Notes: generated from the letters alone by a model not told the origin. Counted from the first letter of the stretch, positions 4,277 through 63,841 are shown. The stretch: DNA of 63,841 nucleotides from Minisyncoccota bacterium (GCA_020057185.1 JAGVGK010000005.1:1-63841); one strand, 5' to 3'. Made by a program: numbers and translations.

Positions 4277-5833
4277 TCACGCTTTTAAAAGCTGTCGAAT
4301 TTCTTCGTAGTCCTCGGCGTAGGCGGAGATGATGTTGATTAAACGCTCTTTCGCCACGCCGAGTTGCTCTTTTTCGGCGTCTTTAACTTCGAGTAATTGT
4401 TCGAAACTGAAATGCGCTGTCGAATCCGTGGCCTCTTCCAATTTAACTTCTTGAGTTTGGGCCATAATTAATTCTTCCGCCACACCCAACGGATAACTGG
4501 CAAAAAAAGAATTAAGCGCCCGAATAATATCAAACCCGGGCGCAAGTTTGACTGCCACCATATCGGCAATCACCAGAGTTCGGAAAAAAATCACCACTTC
4601 GCGCGGTAAATAAATTTGGTAATCACGTGTTTTGAGTAAAATTTTTGAAAAAACCAGCGAAGAAGTTAAGTGCTGATAATTAGGTAAAGTTTTCTCTTCA
4701 TACCACGGCGTGAGAATCCCTTCCAAATCAAGTTGTAAATTATCGAGCATAATCTCTTCCAATTTATCAACCACTTTGGCATACCGTTTATAAGTGTCTG
4801 GTTCTTTCAGTTTAAATAAATCAACTTCATCGGCCATCGCCGTCTTCGCAAAATGGAGAAAGTGCTTACTCGAAAAAGCCAGATCGCGCCGAGCGATGCC
4901 GTAAATAATCCGCAAGAGATCCAACCGCGTCTTCCCCACCTGACCGATAATTCCGAAATCGAAATAACCCAACCGATTATTTGAAGCGAAAAAGAGATTC
5001 GCCGGATGCGGATCAGCATGGAAAAAACCATCAATGAAATACTGGCGCATAATGTCAAAAACGAAATAATACGCTAGCTCTTCGGTGTGGATAGAATGGT
5101 TGGTGAGAAGTTCGTCGCGGTATTTCGGATTTTTTTCCAATTCTTTAAGCACCGTTTCCACTGAAAAGACTTCCGCCATATCTTCACTGACTAACACTCG
5201 CTCAGTGGACCACTCGGCGTAAGCTCGCGGGATAATCGTCCGCGGATGACTTTCGCTATGACGCGCGAGAATTTGCGAATTGGTTAACTCCTCGCGGAAA
5301 TCGAGTTCGCGCCGACTCCAAGCGATAAATTCTTTGACCACATCTTGAATTTGGAAAGTATTAAATAAACGGAAAAAACTAAGGAGTCGGCCGAGAACGC
5401 GCGCCAACAAAAAATCAGTCTCGAAAACTTGACGGATTGCCGGCCGTTGAATTTTGACCACAACGGGAGTGCCGTCGGACAACCGCGCGCGGTAAACTTG
5501 AGAGATCGACGCCGAGGCAATTGGTTTGGATTCGAATTTTTGAAAAACGGCTTCCGGCGGTTGGCCGATTTCGTCAATAAAAACTTGGCGCATCGCCGAG
5601 TACGGCGACACCCTGATTCGCGACAAGAGATTAAGCAACTCATTCGCGTACCGAGGTGGAATGAGATCGTGACGAAGCGAAAGAATTTGTCCGAGTTTGA
5701 CGAACGCCCCACCCGCTTGCTCGAAGAAAAGTCGCAGGCGGACTTCCGGCGTTACTTCCCGTTTTAATAACAACCGGATACTAATCCGACCAATGTCCCA
5801 AAATCTGGTTAAAAAATCTAGCCCGCTCATCAT
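4277..5833 (-). CDS. ubiB: ABC1/UbiB-family atypical protein kinase
   Basis: Motifs PIASASISQVYRA, VVVKIQRP, HADPHPANLF, FDFGIIG. Confidence 0.9.
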   Translation of the reverse strand: MMSGLDFLTRFWDIGRISIRLLLKREVTPEVRLRLFFEQAGGAFVKLGQILSLRHDLIPPRYANELLNLLSRIRVSPYSAMRQVFIDEIGQPPEAVFQKFESKPIASASISQVYRARLSDGTPVVVKIQRPAIRQVFETDFLLARVLGRLLSFFRLFNTFQIQDVVKEFIAWSRRELDFREELTNSQILARHSESHPRTIIPRAYAEWSTERVLVSEDMAEVFSVETVLKELEKNPKYRDELLTNHSIHTEELAYYFVFDIMRQYFIDGFFHADPHPANLFFASNNRLGYFDFGIIGQVGKTRLDLLRIIYGIARRDLAFSSKHFLHFAKTAMADEVDLFKLKEPDTYKRYAKVVDKLEEIMLDNLQLDLEGILTPWYEEKTLPNYQHLTSSLVFSKILLKTRDYQIYLPREVVIFFRTLVIADMVAVKLAPGFDIIRALNSFFASYPLGVAEELIMAQTQEVKLEEATDSTAHFSFEQLLEVKDAEKEQLGVAKERLINIISAYAEDYEEIRQLLKA

Positions 5834-5985: not shown

Positions 5986-6019
5986 AATATATTTAGGTTC
6001 ACAAATATCCCGACCCAAC

Positions 6020-6230
6020 TGTGGCCAGCGGGTGCGAGCTCCAAAAACTAAATGTCTTTATGTGAGTGCGACCGCCGGCCACAACTAGGCCCGAAAGATC
6101 ACAGTTTTAGTATACCAAATATCAGTCGGCACGCAAATCCCCCGTCGCCGAAGCTAAGGGGGGCTTGCGCAAGACATCTAACTTATCAGAGCTCGTTCTC
6201 TCCGCCGAAGGCGGAAAGAAAAGCACTCAC
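6020..6230 (-). ncRNA. Candidate structured RNA, or a long structured 5' leader of the small-TM/ubiB operon
   Basis: GC-rich island in otherwise AT-rich spacers. Stems are perfect on the minus strand if G-U pairs are allowed but carry A-C mismatches on the plus strand (GUGGCCGGCGG/CCGCUGGCCAC; CUUUCCGCC-UUC-GGCGGAGAG). A cUUCGg tetraloop is enclosed by CCCCC/GGGGG. Long-range complementarity GUGAGUGC/GCACUCAC. No known family recognised. Confidence 0.35.
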
Positions 6231-6236
6231 CTTCTG

Positions 6237-6265
6237 ATGCTAGCAAATCGCCTCTTAAAAGTCAA
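6237..6265 (-). promoter_or_regulatory. Sigma70-like promoter TTGACT-17-TAGCAT driving the structured RNA/leader
   Basis: Reverse complement of agtcaa (6260..6265) and atgcta (6237..6242), with a 17-nt spacer. Confidence 0.4.
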
Positions 6266-6294
6266 GCCCAAAGTGGATAACTACTCCTACTTAA

Positions 6295-6303
6295 TGCTAA
6301 AAT
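6295..6303 (+). promoter_or_regulatory. Extended -10 TGCTAAAAT, 6 nt upstream of the ATG at 6310 (leaderless mRNA predicted)
   Basis: tgctaaaat-attccg-ATG; no Shine-Dalgarno sequence. Confidence 0.5.
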
Positions 6304-6309
6304 ATTCCG

Positions 6310-6939
6310 ATGCGCGCTTACGCTTACATTGACGCTTCAAACTTATTTTACGGCGGTAAAAAATCTCTCGGTTGGAGTGTTGATTTTGAAAAACTTTACA
6401 AATATCTTCAGCACCGGTTTGAGGTATCTCGGATCTATTATTTTGGCGGTGTGGAAATTCATAAATTTCCTTTTGACTATCTAGCTAATGATACCGTTTC
6501 TTTAAAAGATTTGGAAAAATATCTTGTCGAGTATGTTGAGAAAAATAAAAACAATTTGACCAGTGCTAAACTCGCACTTCTTGATCGTCATCTGAAACAA
6601 GTACACTTCTACCAAAAACTCGAGAAATTTGGCTTCCAACTCGTGCTGAAGCCAGTGAAAATGTATGGGGACGAAGAAGGTAATCAAAAACGCAAAGCAA
6701 ATTGCGATGTGGAGATGGCCTTCTATCTTATGCGAGATAAAAATGAGTTTGAGCGCGTTGTGGTACTTTCTGGCGATGGAGATTTTTTACCCGTATTAAA
6801 ACATCTTCGTGAAGTCGGTAAAAAAGAAGTTCTAGTCCTCGCCCGTGGACCGAGAACCGCCAAAGAAATCAAGCAATTTGCCGGAGACAAATTTATGGAT
6901 TTCACTAACAATCTGCGAGATCGTCTTGAGAGAATTTAG
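6310..6939 (+). CDS. NYN/LabA-like (DUF88) PIN-fold nuclease domain protein
   Basis: Motifs YAYIDASNLFYG, CDVEMAFYL, VVLSGDGDFLPV. Paralogue of 60482..61042. Confidence 0.8.
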   Translation: MRAYAYIDASNLFYGGKKSLGWSVDFEKLYKYLQHRFEVSRIYYFGGVEIHKFPFDYLANDTVSLKDLEKYLVEYVEKNKNNLTSAKLALLDRHLKQVHFYQKLEKFGFQLVLKPVKMYGDEEGNQKRKANCDVEMAFYLMRDKNEFERVVVLSGDGDFLPVLKHLREVGKKEVLVLARGPRTAKEIKQFAGDKFMDFTNNLRDRLERI

Positions 6940-46199: not shown

Positions 46200-47105
46200 C
46201 TAAATTTTTACAAAATTTTCCACTTTTGTCAAACTGCCCTTTTTCTTTATCTCTTCTATATATTCCGCCACGTCGCGCTTCGCGCGCCAACCAAGCGCCG
46301 TCATTTTCGATTGATCAATTTTAGATCGTTGTCGGTCGCCACGGCGGGCCGGCAACATTTCAATCTTTCCGCCAAACATTTCGGCAAGTTCTAAAATCGA
46401 ATATTCTTTTTCTGCCCCGATGGAATAACCATCGCCCTGACCTTTTTCGCCAACAAGAATAATTCCTTCAACAGTATCGTCAACATGGGTGAACGCCCGC
46501 TTTTGCGTCCCGGGTGTGACAACAGTCAGTGGTTGATGGTCCAAAAATTTCTGCGTTAAAATGCCGACCACCGTCGCGTATCGCCCTTCACGAATTTCTC
46601 TTCCGCCATAAACATTGTAAAAATAAGTAATCGCATAATCCAGCCCGAACCACTCACCGTAGTTGTTAACTAATTCAGTATTAGTTGATTTGAAATAAGC
46701 ATAGGGAGTTTCATTTTTCGCATCTTTAGTAGCATCATCAAACTCACCGAACTTAGTACTCGAACTAGCATAAATTAAACGAATTTTATTCTGGCGGCAA
46801 AACTCAAGTACCTTAAAAGTGCCTTCGATGTTCAACCGCCAAACTAAATCAAGATCATCAAAACTCGTCAGCACCCGCGAATATTCACCAAGATGATAAA
46901 CAATATCTGGTTTTTGTTTAATGAGAGCGTCAATATCTTTGGTCTCACCTTTGATATATTCCGCTCCCGCGATATGATTTTTAACATTCCCCGTAAAATA
47001 ATTATCGAGCGAAAAAACTTGATGGTCGGGATTAACGACTAACTTTTCAATCAAGTGTGAGCCGATAAATCCCGCGCCACCAGTGACTAAAATTACTTTT
47101 TTCAT
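46200..47105 (-). CDS. NAD-dependent epimerase/dehydratase (UXS-like SDR)
   Basis: ILVTGGAGFIGSH and YAYFK. Confidence 0.85.
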   Translation of the reverse strand: MKKVILVTGGAGFIGSHLIEKLVVNPDHQVFSLDNYFTGNVKNHIAGAEYIKGETKDIDALIKQKPDIVYHLGEYSRVLTSFDDLDLVWRLNIEGTFKVLEFCRQNKIRLIYASSSTKFGEFDDATKDAKNETPYAYFKSTNTELVNNYGEWFGLDYAITYFYNVYGGREIREGRYATVVGILTQKFLDHQPLTVVTPGTQKRAFTHVDDTVEGIILVGEKGQGDGYSIGAEKEYSILELAEMFGGKIEMLPARRGDRQRSKIDQSKMTALGWRAKRDVAEYIEEIKKKGSLTKVENFVKI

Positions 47106-48790
47106 TTAAGCATTTTCTCTAATATCTCGCGGGGCACTTCCCCGCCAGAAGTGGGTTGGGTAGACGGCGTTGATTGATGAGATGAAGAAGGTGAAGAAAC
47201 TGGCGGAGTTTTAGTCATAATCTTCTCCAGCGACCGACGAAGGTCTTCTTTGGACTTCAGTTTGTCGCTCTCGCTCACCACTCGCCGACCACTACTGCCC
47301 GGCGTGGGACGAAGCGCGGCGAGCGAAACCGCTAAACGCGGTGGCCCGTCCGAACGAACCGTCCGGGCAGGCGGTGGAAGTGTCGGTTGATTTTTATTAT
47401 TTATTTCTTCAACCGGTTTTTCTCCCGCCAACGGTTTGGACACCACAAACTTTACGCCCCCGCTCGCCACCCCAGCCTCACTATGCCATTTAGCAATCGC
47501 CTCCTCCACCTTGAGACGCGGTTCGGCGTAAGTTCGGCGTGAGTGTTCGATAATTTCGTCGCGATGAGAATCTTGAAGCAACGGGAACGGTGGCAGAGTG
47601 ACCGCCGAGAACGGCGGTGAACCAATGCCATCAATCATCAGCGTGAGATAAAGTTGGTAACGACCAAGATTAACGATGTCTTCTTTGGTAAAAGTCGGGA
47701 AAAATATTTTTTCCAACACTTCGGCATCGAAAGGCCCGACGCGAAAAGTGATGACACTGCCAACATTGCCGAAAACAGCGGCGCGCACTTCTTCAGCCAT
47801 CTGTTCGATATATTGATGCGCAATGGTCAGCGAGAGTTTGTACTTCCGTGATTCGGATAAGATGTTGGCAAAAGATTCGTTAGCAAAAGATTGGAATTCG
47901 TCGACGAAAAAGTAAAAGGGAGGCAAAGTCCGAAGCGCGACACCGGAGAGATTGGCGCGCGACATCGCCGTCAGATAAAGTTTGGTAATCAACATCGAGC
48001 CGATGAGATTGGCATTCCCCTCGCCCATTCGCCCTTTCGACAAATTGATAATCAAAATTTTCTTCTCGTCCATAATTTGCCGGAAATTAACCGACGAGCG
48101 TGGTTGACCAACGATATTCCGAATCAGCGGATTGGAAGTGAATTGTCCGACCTTGTTTTGAATCGCCGGCACGGCTTCAAGCGCCATCCGTTCGGTATAC
48201 TTAGCAAACTCGTCCACCCAAAATGATTTGACGCCCGGATCGGTAATGTTCTCCACCACCTTCTGGCGATAAGTTTTGTCCGAAAGCATTCGGTTAACAC
48301 CAAGTAAAGTTGCGCCCGGATATTCGAGCAAGGCGAGTAAAGTATTTTGTAAAATATATTCCATTCGCGCCGACCAGGCATCCACCCAAATTTTCTTGAA
48401 CGCGCTCATTAGCCCGCTCGACACGAGATAGCGTTGATCCTTACCGACATCTTCCAGCACATTGAACGAGATCGGATGTTCCAGATCGAACGGCGCGAAA
48501 TAAACCACATCCTTGATTCGTTCGGGCGGAACATAGTCGAGCAATTTATCAGCGGTCGAACCGTGCGGATCCATGAAGGCGATACCGTGACCGTTCTGCA
48601 TATCTTGGATCGCCATATTCTCGAGAATCGTGGACTTGCCCATGCCCGTCTTCCCAATCACATAGACGTGCCGACTACGATCTTCGTCCTTAATTCCAAA
48701 CCGCGTCTTCTTCGCGCGGAAATCCGTCTCGGCAAAATAAATTACTCCGGGTTTCGTCTCGTCAGACATAGTGGTTATATTATACACCAA
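47102..48790 (-). CDS. P-loop ATPase of the VirD4/TraG/TraD coupling-protein-like type, with a Pro/Ser-rich C-terminal tail
   Basis: Walker A VIGKTGMGKST and Walker B FYFFVDEFQSF. Low-complexity C-terminal tail of about 120 aa. Confidence 0.55.
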   Translation of the reverse strand: MVYNITTMSDETKPGVIYFAETDFRAKKTRFGIKDEDRSRHVYVIGKTGMGKSTILENMAIQDMQNGHGIAFMDPHGSTADKLLDYVPPERIKDVVYFAPFDLEHPISFNVLEDVGKDQRYLVSSGLMSAFKKIWVDAWSARMEYILQNTLLALLEYPGATLLGVNRMLSDKTYRQKVVENITDPGVKSFWVDEFAKYTERMALEAVPAIQNKVGQFTSNPLIRNIVGQPRSSVNFRQIMDEKKILIINLSKGRMGEGNANLIGSMLITKLYLTAMSRANLSGVALRTLPPFYFFVDEFQSFANESFANILSESRKYKLSLTIAHQYIEQMAEEVRAAVFGNVGSVITFRVGPFDAEVLEKIFFPTFTKEDIVNLGRYQLYLTLMIDGIGSPPFSAVTLPPFPLLQDSHRDEIIEHSRRTYAEPRLKVEEAIAKWHSEAGVASGGVKFVVSKPLAGEKPVEEINNKNQPTLPPPARTVRSDGPPRLAVSLAALRPTPGSSGRRVVSESDKLKSKEDLRRSLEKIMTKTPPVSSPSSSHQSTPSTQPTSGGEVPREILEKMLK

Positions 48791-59365: not shown

Positions 59366-60448
59366 TTACTGTAACCTCGTCCCCCCGCGGAGGCGAACTC
59401 CACCGCGGAGACGCACGGCTCGGGCATTAGCCGTGACCGAGGGGATATAAGTGATGACAATCACCCCTTGCTTGCCCACTCCTTCAAGAAGTTTTGTCGC
59501 CCCCCCAGCGCCACCACCACCGCCGCCATAACTACCGCCAGCGCCGCCGCCTTTGCCGGCGCTACCACCCCCGCCACCGCCACCAGAACCGGCGAGGGCG
59601 CCAAATTCAATTGCCGTCCATTCAATCGTCCCAGCGCCGCCGGCGGCGCCGGCAAGGGAAGTGCCACCCCCACCACCGCCACCCAAAGTTCCAGCTGACT
59701 CCGCCGCGCCACCACCTTGCCCATTGAAATTATTCCCGCCCGCGCCACCGCTAAGACCATGAAATCCAGATGTCCCACCACCGCCACCACCGCCACCACC
59801 ACCTTCGACACCGCCGGGTTCAGTCGTCGCATTTCCCCCATTGCCACCGGTACCATAAAGACCGCCCGCGCCACCACCACCGCCACTACCATTGGTATCG
59901 CTAACAGTATCTATATTTCCACCCGTCCCGCCATTAAAACAACCACTGCAACTGGCCGGTATTCCAGCCGAGACCAACCCGCCGGCGCCATTAGCCGGAT
60001 CGGATATTAAACCACCACTGCCTCCTTGAGCACAAACCGACATTGTGGAAGCGCACACAAAAGAAGAACCTGAAGTTCGGTTAAACCAGGTATCACCGCC
60101 TTTTTTACCATTACTTCCGCTAGCAACAACCACTGTGGTAGAACCAACTTGATAGGTCACTGATCCCCCAGCTGTCAACCCTGTGAGATTGAAGATAACC
60201 GCATATGCCCCGCCGCCGCCACCGCCACCACCATTAATGTCGCCACCGGTGGTACCGCTATCACCGCCACCGCCACCGGCGCCAATCGCTTCGATGGTGT
60301 TAACCGCCGACCAATCGCTGACCACCGTCCAAGTGCCGGGATCGCCGGAGGTGAGAAAAATTCGCTTAAACGCATTGGCGGGATGGGGGAAGGCGAGCAG
60401 AGCAAATAAAACGAGACAGATACTTTTCCACAGTTTGGGGGTTGACAT
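59366..60448 (-). CDS. Secreted glycine-rich protein
   Basis: Signal peptide (MSTPKLWKSICLVLFALLAFPHPANA), many GGGGGG runs, and C-terminal VRLRGGVRLRGGTRLQ. Confidence 0.7.
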   Translation of the reverse strand: MSTPKLWKSICLVLFALLAFPHPANAFKRIFLTSGDPGTWTVVSDWSAVNTIEAIGAGGGGGDSGTTGGDINGGGGGGGGAYAVIFNLTGLTAGGSVTYQVGSTTVVVASGSNGKKGGDTWFNRTSGSSFVCASTMSVCAQGGSGGLISDPANGAGGLVSAGIPASCSGCFNGGTGGNIDTVSDTNGSGGGGGAGGLYGTGGNGGNATTEPGGVEGGGGGGGGGGTSGFHGLSGGAGGNNFNGQGGGAAESAGTLGGGGGGGTSLAGAAGGAGTIEWTAIEFGALAGSGGGGGGGSAGKGGGAGGSYGGGGGGAGGATKLLEGVGKQGVIVITYIPSVTANARAVRLRGGVRLRGGTRLQ

Positions 60449-60481
60449 GGTTTGGTGGTTTGCTATCATATAAATAATTCA

Positions 60482-61042
60482 CTACGAAAAAGACCCTGAC
60501 AGAGTTCCGTCTCTGTTGGGGGCTTTTTCTTTTCGGATTTCTAAAATAAGTTTCTGGTCAGAAATATAGGAAATTGACACACCGGTTCTTTTCAAGAGGA
60601 TTGAACATTTTTCGGGTCTAGCTGGAGAAAGAAGCGTTATGATCTTTTCTTTTGACTGAAGAAATTTTACCAACCCGGCATAATCCCCATCACTTGAAAC
60701 AATAATAGTTTTTTCGTACTTGTTTTCGTAAGTATCACACGCAACTTGCAAAACTAAATCCGCATCACAATTTCCTTTCGGTTTTCCATCTTTATCGTAA
60801 ATAACTTCTTTATAAACCAAAATGAACCCTGATTCCTGTAAGTATTTGTATAGATCTTTGAAGCCAGGAATCAAACCAATAAAGATATATGCTTTGGAAA
60901 CTTTATATTTTTCTCCCAGCCAGACACGGAAACGAGCATAGTCCAATTTCCAGCCAAGGCTAGAGACACCTTTATGCAGATTAGCTCCATCGATATAAGC
61001 GTAATTATTTTTGTTTAATGATTGGTTCATTGTCGTGTCCAT
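60482..61042 (-). CDS. NYN/LabA-like PIN-fold nuclease domain protein
   Basis: YAYIDGANLHKG, CDADLVLQV and IVSSDGDYAGLV. Its ATG overlaps the ATPase stop (TAATG). Confidence 0.8.
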   Translation of the reverse strand: MDTTMNQSLNKNNYAYIDGANLHKGVSSLGWKLDYARFRVWLGEKYKVSKAYIFIGLIPGFKDLYKYLQESGFILVYKEVIYDKDGKPKGNCDADLVLQVACDTYENKYEKTIIVSSDGDYAGLVKFLQSKEKIITLLSPARPEKCSILLKRTGVSISYISDQKLILEIRKEKAPNRDGTLSGSFS

Positions 61043-62187
61043 TATTTCGAATTCAGCAAAAAATCTAAATAATTATCTCTATCTATTACCTTAAAAGTGG
61101 TTTTTTGATAAGTTTTATTCCAATTTTTTGGTTGGTTAATCTTCCCCCCACTTCCCCACTTAAACTCAAAACCATGTAATATGCCATTCCTTTCCTCCGC
61201 CCAATCAACTTCTTCCCCTTCCCAAGTTCGCCAAAAATAATTATTAGTGAACATCTCCTTGTATTTTTGTGTTTTTAGTCTTTCCATCGCCAAAAAATTT
61301 TCCCAAAGCTGACCAGTATCATTACGCAAATCTAAACTATTAAATTGAGAAATAACGGCGTTACGAATACCGAGATCATAAAAATAATATTTTCGCTTAC
61401 TTCTTACGGTCTTTCTTAAATTCATAAAATAAGGTCGCAGACTAAAAATTACAAAGGTTTTCTCCAATAAATCTAAGTACCGATCGACCGTCTTCACATC
61501 AATTAATAATTGAGTCGCCAATTCATTTAGCGATACCTCATTGCCGACCTGAAAAGCCAACAGTTTTAGCAAATCTACTATAGTTTGGGGACTTTTTACT
61601 TGTTCGAGACTTAAAAGATCTTTAAGCAAATAAGATTGACTCAATTCTTCCAAAGTTTTCCGCTTTAACTTTTTAGTTTTTGCTGTAATCACAGTCGGGT
61701 AACCGCCAAAAATCAAAAACTCCTCAAGCTTATTCTTTAAATCAAACCGACTATATTCCTTCGCTAGCTCCAATTGAGACAAGGGGTATAAATTTAATAT
61801 CCATTTCCTACCCACCAGCGGTTCTCCCACTTGTCCAGATAAATCAAAAGAAGAGGACCCCGTGGCGATAATTTTAATTCCCGGAAATTGATCAACAATA
61901 ATTTTTAAACCGAGACCAACATTGGGAATATATTGGGCTTCGTCAATAACGATAAGTTCATAGTCACTTACATAATCTTTAATTAAATCAAAATTTCTGG
62001 AAGACAAAACCTTTTGAATATCGAGGTTCTCACCCGTATCCAGTCGATAATGCATTTTGGTTTTTTTAAGGAATTGATCAACCAAAGTAGTTTTGCCTAC
62101 CCGACGAGGTCCATAAATAACCAAGACTTTATTGGCTTCAAGATATTTTTCTAATTCTTGGTAATATCGCTTAAAAAGCATGATCAT
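61042..62187 (-). CDS. AAA+ ATPase of the COG1373 type (AAA_14 + DUF4143)
   Basis: Walker A GPRRVGKTT, Walker B LIVIDEAQY, and C-terminal YFYDLGIRN region. Confidence 0.8.
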   Translation of the reverse strand: MIMLFKRYYQELEKYLEANKVLVIYGPRRVGKTTLVDQFLKKTKMHYRLDTGENLDIQKVLSSRNFDLIKDYVSDYELIVIDEAQYIPNVGLGLKIIVDQFPGIKIIATGSSSFDLSGQVGEPLVGRKWILNLYPLSQLELAKEYSRFDLKNKLEEFLIFGGYPTVITAKTKKLKRKTLEELSQSYLLKDLLSLEQVKSPQTIVDLLKLLAFQVGNEVSLNELATQLLIDVKTVDRYLDLLEKTFVIFSLRPYFMNLRKTVRSKRKYYFYDLGIRNAVISQFNSLDLRNDTGQLWENFLAMERLKTQKYKEMFTNNYFWRTWEGEEVDWAEERNGILHGFEFKWGSGGKINQPKNWNKTYQKTTFKVIDRDNYLDFLLNSK

Positions 62188-62216
62188 ATATTATTAAATA
62201 CTAAATCCGTTGTCAA
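62188..62216 (-). promoter_or_regulatory. Near-consensus promoter TTGACA-17-TAATAT abutting the ATPase start codons (leaderless predicted)
   Basis: Reverse complement of tgtcaa (62211..62216) and atatta (62188..62193). ATGs at 62187 and 62181. Confidence 0.55.
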
Positions 62217-62247
62217 ATTTTGAGGAGTTTGACTCCTCAAAATTTGA
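62213..62247. terminator. Perfect 16-bp inverted repeat with a 3-nt loop (terminator of the tail-fibre-like gene and/or operator)
   Basis: TCAAATTTTGAGGAGT-ttg-ACTCCTCAAAATTTGA. Begins 6 nt after the stop at 62253 and overlaps the -35 box. Confidence 0.6.
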
Positions 62248-62252
62248 TGATT

Positions 62253-63841
62253 TCAAGGAGTGGGTGCGGGAGCAATTTCAATGGTAGGTTCAGGCGCTGG
62301 AATCGGCTCGGGGATAGGAACCACTTCCGGTGTCGAAGTTGCCTCGGATTCAGGTTCGGGGGTTGGAATTATTTCTTCGGGAGTGGAAGTGGCTTCAGGT
62401 TCCGGTTCAGGAACAGGTTCTGGCAAGGGTTCAGGCGTAACCTCTGGCGGAGATTCTGGAGCAGGTGGTGGTGGCGACGGTACCAGTTGTCCGTTCTTCA
62501 TCTGCAATAGCGTGCGAATATCCTCTTTGGTCAAACATTGATCGTCCACGCAAATCTTCTCCTTGGCGCGGAAAGTGTTGGCAAATAAATCACCGATTCC
62601 ATTAGTGACATCCGCGAACCAACCGGTCACCCGCGTAAATAGATTGCCGAAAAATCCTTGAGCGAATAACTCTGAATCGGAGGTAGTCGTCGCGGTGGTG
62701 GAAGCCACGGCATCGAGACGCAAACTCAATTCTTGTGTGGCTTTGGTGAGCACCGCTGTTAAATGTTCATAGCGGACGGTATCGGGTTGACCCAGTGAAT
62801 CAATCGTCACTAACCGCGGATCAATTTGTTGCACTTCCTCGGCAATGAAACCAACCCGTTCGCCATTCCAATTTGGGTTAGTTACAAAACCACCAAGATA
62901 TTCCGGTGTGTAGGAATAAGAAACGGGGCGAAGCGCCATAATTTCGGCCAAGCCACCACTGGCGACAATGGCTGGAGTATTTTGAAGTTTTGAAGTTTCC
63001 AATAATCCATCAGGTAAGGTGTCGAGAGTTACTACATTTTGTTTGAACCGAATTGAAGAAGCAGCGCTACAAGTGTTGGCAGTACGAAGAGTCACTTCTT
63101 TAAGATTGGAGAGACAAAGACTATCGCCGGGTGTGCTGGTCGCCGTCAACCCGTCGAAGCCGACCGTGCCAGTAACGGAAAGAGTTCGCCATGGGGTCGT
63201 TGAACCAAAACCGGTATTGACGGCAAAATTAATTTTATCCCCGGCGGTGCCGAAAGTTAAAGTATTCGTGCCTTGTCCGTGAATAGTCGCGGATTCTTCA
63301 AAAACGAGATTAGTGGTCGTCCCCACGGCGCCGATAATAACATCCGAAAGACCATAGCCACCCCCGACGATCACTTGCTCGGCGCCATTAGTCGTATCAA
63401 TTCTAAAAAGTGTGCTACTCGCCCCGCCACCAGTGGTCGTGGCAATAGTCCAAGCGAAGGGACTGTTGGTTTTAATCGTGGTCGTGGCAATCGCTTGGGC
63501 GAAATCCAAACGCCCGCCGGTGATAGCCAACATGCCCGTCGTCGTGGCGTTGGTACTCGTCGCGTTCACCATCACTAAGTTGGTGATCGTTGAAGAAGCG
63601 CTACTAATCAGGATGCCATCACTTGTTGTCAGGGGGGTCAAATAGATACCAGCATCAGTCCAGTTGGAACTACCACCAGTTGGCCAAGTGGTACGACAAG
63701 TGTCACCAGTTAAACAAAGAGTGGTAACGGCAAAATTAGTACTCGTGGCATTCGTCGTCGTACTGTTAATCATCGTCAAGTTGGTGATGGTCGAGGTCGC
63801 GTTGTTGACGAGGACTCCCCCGCTTAATGTGGACAAACCAC
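62253..63841 (-). CDS. Tail-fibre-like surface protein with a peptidase-S74 intramolecular chaperone domain and a C-terminal Pro/Glu-rich tail (5'-truncated by the window edge)
   Basis: SSIRFKQNV, IMALRPVSYSY, RVGFIAEEVQQIDPRLV and VRYEHLTAVLTKATQEL. The frame stays open to position 63841. Confidence 0.8.
   Translation of the reverse strand, partial: GLSTLSGGVLVNNATSTITNLTMINSTTTNATSTNFAVTTLCLTGDTCRTTWPTGGSSNWTDAGIYLTPLTTSDGILISSASSTITNLVMVNATSTNATTTGMLAITGGRLDFAQAIATTTIKTNSPFAWTIATTTGGGASSTLFRIDTTNGAEQVIVGGGYGLSDVIIGAVGTTTNLVFEESATIHGQGTNTLTFGTAGDKINFAVNTGFGSTTPWRTLSVTGTVGFDGLTATSTPGDSLCLSNLKEVTLRTANTCSAASSIRFKQNVVTLDTLPDGLLETSKLQNTPAIVASGGLAEIMALRPVSYSYTPEYLGGFVTNPNWNGERVGFIAEEVQQIDPRLVTIDSLGQPDTVRYEHLTAVLTKATQELSLRLDAVASTTATTTSDSELFAQGFFGNLFTRVTGWFADVTNGIGDLFANTFRAKEKICVDDQCLTKEDIRTLLQMKNGQLVPSPPPPAPESPPEVTPEPLPEPVPEPEPEATSTPEEIIPTPEPESEATSTPEVVPIPEPIPAPEPTIEIAPAPTP

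Follow-up and report, generated by a model that had tools for sequence, protein, structure and literature searches.

The two genes between positions 60,482 and 62,252 of a 63,841-nucleotide contig from a Minisyncoccota bacterium (GCA_020057185.1, JAGVGK010000005.1; the whole contig is referred to below as the window) encode a COG1373-type AAA+ ATPase and, directly downstream on the same strand, a LabA-like NYN nuclease. The initial annotation had read them as a translationally coupled two-gene defence or toxin module. All the sequence features it described were found where it had placed them; of its interpretation, the domain assignments, catalytic residues and operator idea are upheld, the two-gene module is not. 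Judged by comparison with homologous loci, they are instead independent accessory modules joined side by side and not a conserved system, and the constant partner of the NYN gene appears to be a small antisense RNA gene at its 3' end that is apparently undescribed. We consider it probable that the region is a composite of two such modules, an NYN gene controlled by a convergent antisense RNA and an ATPase gene that acts alone. The two coding regions and their joint are laid out as follows.

61042..62187, minus strand: ATPase open reading frame, 381 amino acids, with AAA_14 and DUF4143 domains, PADLOC type PDC-S01 (COG1373); likely start at 62181.
60482..61042, minus strand: NYN gene, LabA-like PIN-fold nuclease, 186 amino acids, Pfam NYN 4.4e-11; alternative start at 61030.
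61031..61056, minus strand: unique joint of about 25 nucleotides (nt), matching neither of the two homology blocks described below.

The pairing was examined from both sides. The NYN set held 80 genomic loci with orthologues and three contigs with the closest proteins (83 in total, 60-92% identical), the ATPase set 80 metagenomic loci with homologues of 51-62% identity, 62 of them informative (at least 300 nt of downstream sequence), and the closest ATPase relatives (L164, 83%; L165, 77%; L172, 73%; L166, 68%) were taken separately. A tblastn search with the ATPase found the window's order of ATPase followed by NYN in none of the 83 NYN loci, and none of the 62 informative ATPase loci had an adjacent NYN gene; any NYN gene occurred in one of the 80, at a distance of 1.3 kb. 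The two-gene module had been made to depend on the genes being adjacent in other genomes, and on that count it failed. The NYN relatives with 92%, 86% and 84% identity have unrelated upstream genes. The 367 open reading frames neighbouring NYN fell into 333 clusters, and among the 125 immediate neighbours, which were mostly housekeeping genes (MreB, YchF, Mur ligase, DnaB, ATP synthase, transketolase), no Pfam or PADLOC family was present in more than three loci. What follows the closest ATPase relatives is an overlapping signal-peptide gene (83%), a RhuM/Fic gene and then, 1.4 kb downstream, an internally deleted NYN gene (77%), 213 nt of non-coding DNA (73%) and a membrane protein gene (68%).

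Of 82 NYN-sampled loci, 7 (ca. 8%) have a PDC-S01-type ATPase no more than 4 kb from NYN, at distances of 0.2-3.4 kb. These ATPases stand in either order, mostly downstream, and belong to different subfamilies with 28-50% identity. Enrichment within 1.5 kb of NYN was not significant (4 near versus 3 far, p = 0.14, at a density of about one per 100 kb). Hence, the co-occurrence across genomes that a functional pair would call for was not borne out, the 83% and 73% ATPase relatives having no NYN gene after them.

Nucleotide comparison locates the border between the two modules. Five ATPase relatives align with the window from 62247/62261 to 61057/61060, while the homology to the NYN relatives L001 and L081 begins at 61033/61030 and runs to 60421. 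The joint between the blocks supplies the ATPase's additional C-terminal 'NSK', the sequence TAATG (61044-61040), in which the ATPase stop codon TAA (61044-61042) overlaps an ATG (61042-61040), and the extra N-terminal 'MDTT' of the NYN protein. As this stretch has no homology to either block, the overlap is best seen as a by-product of the juxtaposition. For both genes the second ATG is the likely true start, 62181 for the ATPase, where the N-termini of its homologues align and the NCBI protein has 379 amino acids, and 61030 for NYN, since nucleotide homology to other NYN loci begins at 61033/61030. The stop/start overlap noted by the initial annotation is thus present in the sequence, but with the likely starts at the second ATGs it may not be a functional junction.

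The assignment of the downstream protein to the LabA-like NYN family of PIN-fold nucleases was corroborated by profile searches, with a Pfam NYN match of 43.9 bits against a cut-off of 24.2 and a match of 7.9e-9 to the LabA-like structure PDB 2qip. In an alignment of 26 sequences, with a mean column identity of 74%, residues D18, N21, D93, D95, S117, D118 and D120 are invariant, and the aspartates correspond in position to the D, DxD and DGD motifs of 2qip. The catalytic aspartates, the absence of which would have spoken against the annotation, are hence conserved. We found 3770 homologues, the top 120 of which are 67-92% identical, and every one of these 120 with a named source is a genome bin of the candidate phyla radiation (CPR). 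On this evidence the family is confined to CPR bacteria. Its similarity is independent of taxonomy, with 58-78% identity for pairs from the same lineage and 54-76% for pairs from different lineages, and its G+C content partly tracks that of the host (r = 0.66). The gene is single copy in the window. A scan of IMG/VR gave one confirmed match only, and we rejected the idea that NYN is carried by phages.

Against the PADLOC models the protein matched 'NYN' and, weakly, HEC-09 (residues 92-169, 2.9e-6). With the LabA-like NYN proteins (NYN.COG1432; 2qip) and HEC-09 it shares the NYN fold signature and all conserved aspartates. It differs from them in being compact (175-186 amino acids), without an OST-HTH or helix-turn-helix (HTH) fusion, whereas HEC-09 has an N-terminal HTH, and in being CPR-restricted, unusually conserved (60-92% identity) and always linked to the convergent antisense RNA element. 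Up to 2017 the nuclease function of any LabA-like NYN protein had yet to be investigated, and gene context tied the group to RNA processing (PMC5499597). HEC-09, itself an NYN candidate, gave no protection in phage tests (bioRxiv 10.1101/2024.01.29.577857).

Upstream of the NYN gene, no conserved 5' element or promoter was found across the NYN loci. Elsewhere the gene is either tightly coupled to the gene upstream of it or has a local promoter close to its start codon. At its 3' end, in contrast, nucleotide sequence is conserved in every NYN locus. In the window, this end comprises the following features.

60424..60432, plus strand: DnaA-box-like 9-mer TTTTCCACA, just upstream of the antisense promoter.
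60442..60469, plus strand: antisense promoter, TTGACA (60442-60447), 16 nt, extended -10 TGcTATCAT (hexamer 60464-60469); 11/12 with TG.
60476, plus strand: predicted +1 of the antisense RNA.
60476..60533, plus strand: predicted convergent antisense RNA of about 58 nt, without an ATG, deduced from the geometry of promoter and terminator.
60486..60529, plus strand: hairpin of 18 bp with a UUCCGU loop (-25.8 kcal/mol, z = -4.6), followed by a U-tract to 60533.

On the antisense strand, the consensus over the NYN loci reads TTGAC(A/T), 16-17 nt, TGnTAtaaT, about 7 nt and then the hairpin, which consists of ACUACGAAAAAGACCC, an inner stem, the loop UUCCGU, the complement of the inner stem and GGGGGCUUUUUCUUUU. 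The 81 loci of the 3'-element alignment show no variation in the TTG of the antisense -35 box and almost none in its A and C. A promoter is present in 78 of the 81 loci, which form the basis of the promoter statistics; 51 of the 78 have the extended TG, and in 69 the -10 box and the hairpin are 12-14 nt apart. The last 15 codons of the window's NYN frame (ca. 45 nt) lie inside the hairpin, which is complementary to the 3' end of the NYN mRNA and was called terminator-like on the plus strand by a terminator scan. Together, hairpin and U-tract resemble a terminator for the antisense RNA. DnaA-box-like 9-mers (TTATCCACA, at most one mismatch) occur in 37 of the 78 loci, compared with 0.9 in shuffles; both orientations are represented, and most of the 9-mers lie 2-10 nt upstream of the antisense -35 box.

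The hairpin covaries and pairs better when read on the antisense strand. Over the alignment 94.2% of cells are paired, compared with 44-73% in controls in which the hairpin was slid along the alignment, and eight pairs show compensatory changes. Cells with double changes number 140 against 40.9 +/- 5 in shuffles, none of 500 shuffles being as high. The two strands are distinguished by their wobble pairs, the antisense strand having 124 G.U cells and the NYN strand 13; better pairing on the antisense strand is seen in 67 of the 81 sequences, better pairing on the sense strand in none, and the mean folding energies are -21.9 and -18.4 kcal/mol, respectively. The NYN stop codon precedes the hairpin in 14 loci, falls within it in 48 and follows it in 18. 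With a stop codon so variable relative to the hairpin, conservation of the element and of the 'EKAPxxDxT' tail it encodes is not explained by constraint at the protein level.

The element follows the gene strictly. A covariance model built from it detected one element, and no more, for each NYN gene in 728 kb of NYN loci, with no match in the remainder of that sequence, and there were no orphan copies without NYN in the 1.29 Mb searched. In the window it gave one significant match (110 bits). Outside its training set it matched the locus of the 77% ATPase relative (L165, 83.7 bits), a viral contig (L170), L021 and a paralogue in L038 (66.7 bits). An Rfam scan of 60300-62400 returned chance-level matches only, the best with an E-value of at least 0.48 and far below the gathering threshold; on the element itself, the sole match was 'sar' (17.2 bits against a gathering threshold of 43, E = 4.4). 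A literature search found no description of this NYN 3' element, and the strict linkage of NYN and antisense RNA appears to be new.

Several individual loci show how gene and element behave separately. In L165 (2832-3301), a 124-amino-acid NYN remnant lacks the catalytic middle with D93, D95, D118 and D120, and the RNA element is kept. L024 (at ca. 5112) and L074 (at ca. 6186) have an in-frame TAA or TAG in otherwise conserved NYN frames and an intact RNA element; they may be pseudogenes. These two copies and the L165 remnant are at most indirect hints that the protein could be toxic when made without the RNA. In L021 (811-1129), the hairpin next to NYN is partly deleted and a second, complete element (78 bits) follows about 100 nt further downstream. 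L038 carries tandem NYN paralogues with ca. 43% identity (4968-5638 and 5986-6612), each with its own hairpin, convergent promoter and TGTGG-type 9-mer. The presence of the element on a paralogue this distant suggests that the linkage of NYN and RNA is older than the set of highly similar orthologues.

NYN loci with an intergenic region of their own (L015, L035, L048, L056, L057, L032, L071, L100) have a TATAAT-like box 6-8 nt before the start codon and no Shine-Dalgarno sequence. The ATPase family described below shares this geometry, and leaderless mRNAs may be common in these CPR genomes. In the window, the 3' end of the ATPase gene contains a stretch with weak resemblance to a promoter on the minus strand (61041-61069: TTTAGA, 17 nt, AATAAT; 9/12). 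It ends 10 nt before the NYN ATG at 61030 and could give NYN some transcription independent of the ATPase; no evidence was found that this site is conserved.

In its layout the NYN module resembles type I toxin-antitoxin (TA) systems, among which Bacillus subtilis txpA/RatA and bsrG/SR4 have a convergent antisense RNA overlapping the 3' end of the toxin gene. The NYN gene and the putative small RNA gene are likewise convergent and share a bidirectional terminator-like hairpin, and the RNA, known here from sequence alone, would be fully complementary to the 3' end of the mRNA. A convergent small RNA gene with its own promoter and terminator and a 3' overlap is found at the sequence level in 81-83 loci. 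The module is small, sporadic and horizontally mobile, and decayed protein genes retain the RNA gene. Unlike the small hydrophobic membrane peptide of the classical type I definition, the product is a soluble NYN ribonuclease of 186 amino acids; the RNA promoter often has a DnaA-box-like site, and the module is limited to CPR bacteria. Nuclease toxins do occur in type I systems, in SymE/SymR and RalR/RalA, but we know of them there only from such atypical pairs. The type III system ToxIN also pairs a ribonuclease with a small non-coding RNA. Its ToxI RNA is, however, a tandem repeat array located upstream on the same strand and processed by the toxin, while the RNA in the window is predicted to be a single convergent antisense transcript.

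The upstream protein carries the motifs GPRRVGKTT and LIVIDEAQY, and its assignment to AAA_14 and DUF4143-like ATPases was upheld by Pfam (AAA_14 3.1e-27, 95.6 bits; DUF4143 2.8e-37, 128.4 bits; both above the cut-offs). The defence association claimed for its family was confirmed to the extent that the family is a catalogued candidate: the protein matches PADLOC PDC-S01 (PDLC04789) over its full length with E = 3.3e-144, residues 3-377 covering profile positions 1-373 of 375, and other PADLOC matches were weak. In an alignment of 24 homologues, the Walker A and B residues G26, G31, K32, T33, D82 and E83 are invariant, as are D328, E341 and K343 of a C-terminal PD-(D/E)xK motif (EVDW...FEFKW), recognised at the sequence level. 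A weak HTH_11 match at residues 208-246 points to a winged helix. A profile search of the PDB found no relative among solved structures. DUF4143/COG1373 is listed among the PD-(D/E)XK families (PMC3424549), and PDC-S01 has been described as an ATPase fused to a PD-(D/E)xK nuclease (PMC12988326). Together with the invariant D328, E341 and K343, these descriptions imply that the ATPase already has a nuclease domain of its own.

By these matches the ATPase is a new member of the known candidate family PDC-S01. It agrees with the family in the full-length match, Walker A and B motifs, winged helix, PD-(D/E)xK motif and occurrence as a single gene with variable neighbours, and no structural difference was found. 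[quoted passage not shown] As a separate observation, in L167 (6001-9686) at least two tandem AAA_14 plus DUF4143 genes are followed by a third open reading frame of similar length (381 amino acids) and adjoin a giant gene of more than 2600 amino acids, which indicates that copies of the ATPase family can cluster.

The ATPase gene is preceded by two cis-acting features.

62188..62216, minus strand: ATPase promoter of the sigma-70 type, TTGACA (62216-62211), 17 nt, TAATAT (62193-62188); scored 10/12.
62213..62247, no strand assigned: inverted repeat, candidate operator of the ATPase gene, with perfect 16-bp arms (62247-62232 and 62228-62213) and a 3-nt loop.

Both had been pointed out by the initial annotation and proved to be conserved. 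The -10 box TAATAT abuts the first ATG (62187), and the right arm of the repeat, which folds as RNA with -23.2 kcal/mol (z = -6.1), overlaps the -35 box. In this AT-rich stretch the number of promoter matches (3 versus 5.0 +/- 2.5 in shuffles) is such that a single match is not above chance, and the significance of the promoter hence derives from its conservation in homologues. A -35/-10 pair near the ATG occurs in 49 of 74 homologue upstream regions against 5.6 in shuffles, and 35 of these 49 have exactly 6 nt between the end of the -10 box and the ATG. As the same spacing applies to the ATG at 62181, the predicted +1 coincides with its A, which would make the ATPase mRNA leaderless.

The palindrome is conserved in kind rather than in sequence. 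Arms of 10 nt were used for the count, as 8-nt arms were too loose (25.6 of 74 in shuffles). Such an inverted repeat is present in 51 of 76 distinct upstream regions of ATPase homologues (3.45 in shuffles), and 27 also contain a third, direct copy of the left arm (0.25 in shuffles), typically between the -35 and -10 boxes. The arms diverge widely among loci (mean identity 0.38), and matching palindromes upstream of the 76% and 73% relatives show compensatory changes (AAGGAGT/ACTCCTT and ATGGAGT/CTCCAT). On the strength of these comparisons, palindrome and promoter are a genuine conserved cis-element of the ATPase gene, and the palindrome is plausibly its operator. A main role as terminator of the upstream S74 gene was rejected: the palindrome has no U-tract, was not called by the terminator scan and travels with the ATPase gene in other contexts. 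We found no description of this operator and leaderless promoter architecture for PDC-S01 in the literature searched, and it appears to be new.

The genes on both sides of the cassette define the setting into which the modules came. They encode a protein with a Peptidase_S74 domain (Pfam 3.8e-7) and a Gly-rich protein, for which a profile search of the window proteins gave no Pfam match; farther away lie MurC/MurD-type ligases and surface proteins with Ig domains, and the block containing the cassette is syntenic with a Vogelbacteria contig (L001). Judged by its gene content, the setting is the chromosome of a CPR bacterium. A prophage context was rejected because the flanks are chromosomal CPR surface-protein genes syntenic with the Vogelbacteria contig, and the surroundings described earlier as phage-like are such surface-protein genes adjoining MurC/MurD. 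The gene order in L001 is S74, Gly-rich, NYN and a gene of 184 amino acids, with no ATPase and with the S74 and Gly-rich genes directly coupled. In the window, the composite of ATPase and NYN sits exactly at the S74/Gly-rich junction, so that within one syntenic block NYN occupies different slots; no NYN remnant was seen in the window at the slot equivalent to that of L001 (59215-59365). The G+C content of the ATPase and NYN genes is 0.34-0.37 against 0.42 for the window. This places the cassette at about the 5th percentile of windows, with another part of the window lower still, and we rejected so moderate an anomaly as proof of recent transfer.

A further observation concerns the outer end of the NYN element, which provides the start codon and the first ca. 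9 codons ('MS..K(L/M/V)WKS') of whichever gene lies downstream. In this NYN subfamily the outer end reads ATGTCAA...TGTGGAAAAGT and is found at 60421-60448 in the window, 5114-5145 in L001 and 589-620 in L002, where it starts the Gly-rich gene (minus strand), the gene of the 184-amino-acid protein and that of an unrelated protein, respectively. The Gly-rich gene of L001, directly coupled to S74, has its own, different N-terminus MKIIKLL.... From the shared codons and this difference, insertion seems to swap the n-region of the signal peptide and not to destroy the gene.

Taken together, we propose that both modules entered in head-to-tail order, precisely at the junction of two chromosomal genes for surface proteins, which in a related genome stand directly coupled. 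Module 1 (62247-61042) would be a self-contained PDC-S01/COG1373 gene with its own operator, promoter and leaderless mRNA. Its product may bind the repeated half-sites through the winged helix and so repress its own promoter; acting alone, it could serve as an NTP-dependent DNA sensor and nuclease, which makes it a candidate defence or selfish gene. Module 2 (61033-60421) would be a CPR-specific LabA-like NYN ribonuclease gene that has no fixed promoter of its own and is here read through from the ATPase promoter, the co-transcription being an accident of insertion. From the extended -10 promoter, a convergent RNA of ca. 58 nt would run to the hairpin overlapping the last ca. 45 nt of the NYN frame. 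By pairing with the 3' end of the NYN mRNA it may form a long duplex that leads to mRNA decay, and the nuclease would be kept at a low level.

Within this proposal, NYN and RNA may form a TA or abortive-infection module, a tentative view to which we give somewhat less than even weight and which draws on the sporadic, taxonomy-independent spread of NYN, its change of slot in a syntenic block and the decayed NYN copies that keep the element. The fullest version is doubtful; it would make NYN and antisense RNA a new CPR-wide mobile TA-like or abortive-infection module whose RNA promoter is wired to DnaA, releasing the nuclease when replication or transcription is disturbed, alongside a PDC-S01 gene autoregulated from a three-half-site operator on a leaderless mRNA.

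Several points weigh against the composite of independent modules with antisense control. All support for the antisense RNA comes from sequence comparison. Single-stranded DNA tolerates G.T pairs as well, and a hairpin formed at the DNA level could therefore account for the wobble pairs. The hairpin could double as NYN's own terminator. The position of NYN mostly among housekeeping genes and its single copy fit a regulated cellular RNase as well as a toxin. There is some co-localisation, in the 7 of 82 loci with an ATPase within 4 kb of NYN and in the decayed NYN gene 1.4 kb downstream of the 77% ATPase relative, and a loose functional link between ATPase and NYN may exist; both genes are low in G+C and could have arrived together. 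Finally, the tested PDC-S01 member gave no protection against T4, T5 and T7 (bioRxiv 10.1101/2024.09.26.614923), nor did HEC-09 against any phage tested (bioRxiv 10.1101/2024.01.29.577857).

Among the alternatives, the one that survives best, though we think it unlikely, takes NYN as an ordinary CPR cellular RNase of RNA processing or turnover and its 3' element as a bidirectional terminator with a regulatory antisense promoter. Such a role is compatible with the antisense RNA and would suit the mostly housekeeping neighbours (MreB, YchF, Mur ligase, DnaB, ATP synthase), the single copy in the window, the very strong purifying selection implied by the mean column identity of 74%, the partial match to host G+C and the link of LabA-like NYN proteins to RNA processing by gene context (PMC5499597). 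It is harder to reconcile with a similarity that ignores taxonomy, with the different slot of NYN in an otherwise syntenic block of a close relative, with the decayed gene in L165 that keeps the RNA element and the two loci with in-frame stops, and with the distribution of the family, which has ca. 3800 clusters and looks sporadic rather than universal in CPR bacteria.

We regard it as improbable that the 3' element acts as DNA, as a recombination, insertion or replication-related site that moves or maintains the NYN cassette. Occurrence of the DnaA-box-like 9-mer in 37 of 78 loci and in both orientations is typical of a protein-binding DNA site, the NYN unit behaves as mobile, the gene has no conserved 5' region or promoter, and folded single-stranded DNA tolerates G.T wobble. 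The near-invariant positions, however, are exactly those of a sigma-70 promoter (TTGAC, 16-17 nt, TGnTAnnnT), the -10 box keeps a distance of 12-14 nt from the hairpin in 69 of 78 loci, and the U-tract follows the hairpin on the antisense strand. No copies of the element occur without NYN in the 1.29 Mb, and inspection of the element and block sequences, by eye only, revealed no terminal repeats or target-site duplications.

Least probable, and in our view hardly tenable, is a genuine two-gene system, at the least a lineage-specific innovation, in which the ATPase, as a sensor of infection or DNA, would switch on or license a co-translated NYN effector: the stop/start overlap and the lack of a terminator between the genes imply co-transcription here, the decayed NYN near the 77% relative and the 7 of 82 loci lend it some colour, and experiments have validated the two-gene defence system HEC-03 (bioRxiv 10.1101/2024.01.29.577857), in which, superficially alike, a PIN-fold nuclease gene comes after an NTPase gene, yet the adjacency is seen in this window only and is not conserved, nearby ATPases vary in order, distance and subfamily (28-50% identity) with no significant enrichment (p = 0.14), the overlap sits in a joint without homology to either block, neither protein matches the HEC-03 models, and the ATPase already carries its own nuclease domain and belongs to a family, PDC-S01, catalogued as a single-gene candidate.

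The interest of the region therefore lies in the antisense-RNA partner and the cis-architecture of PDC-S01, not in the pairing originally proposed. Removing the pair of ATPase and NYN as a defence system eliminates a false lead, one juxtaposition being no basis for a catalogue entry. For the uncharacterised LabA-like NYN family, the strictly linked, covarying antisense RNA predicted in more than 80 genomes offers a first handle. If true, it adds a regulatory RNA to the candidate phyla radiation, in which, to our knowledge, few have been described. PDC-S01 is among the most abundant unvalidated defence candidates, and operator and leaderless promoter give a testable model of its regulation. Expression of the gene may go astray in constructs to which a 5' leader was added or from which the operator was left out, which could matter for how negative phage assays are read.

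Elsewhere in the window, among cell-wall genes, a gene on the minus strand (47102-48790) encodes a protein of 562 amino acids with weak matches to coupling proteins of type IV secretion (T4SS-DNA_transf, TrwB and TraG-D_C).

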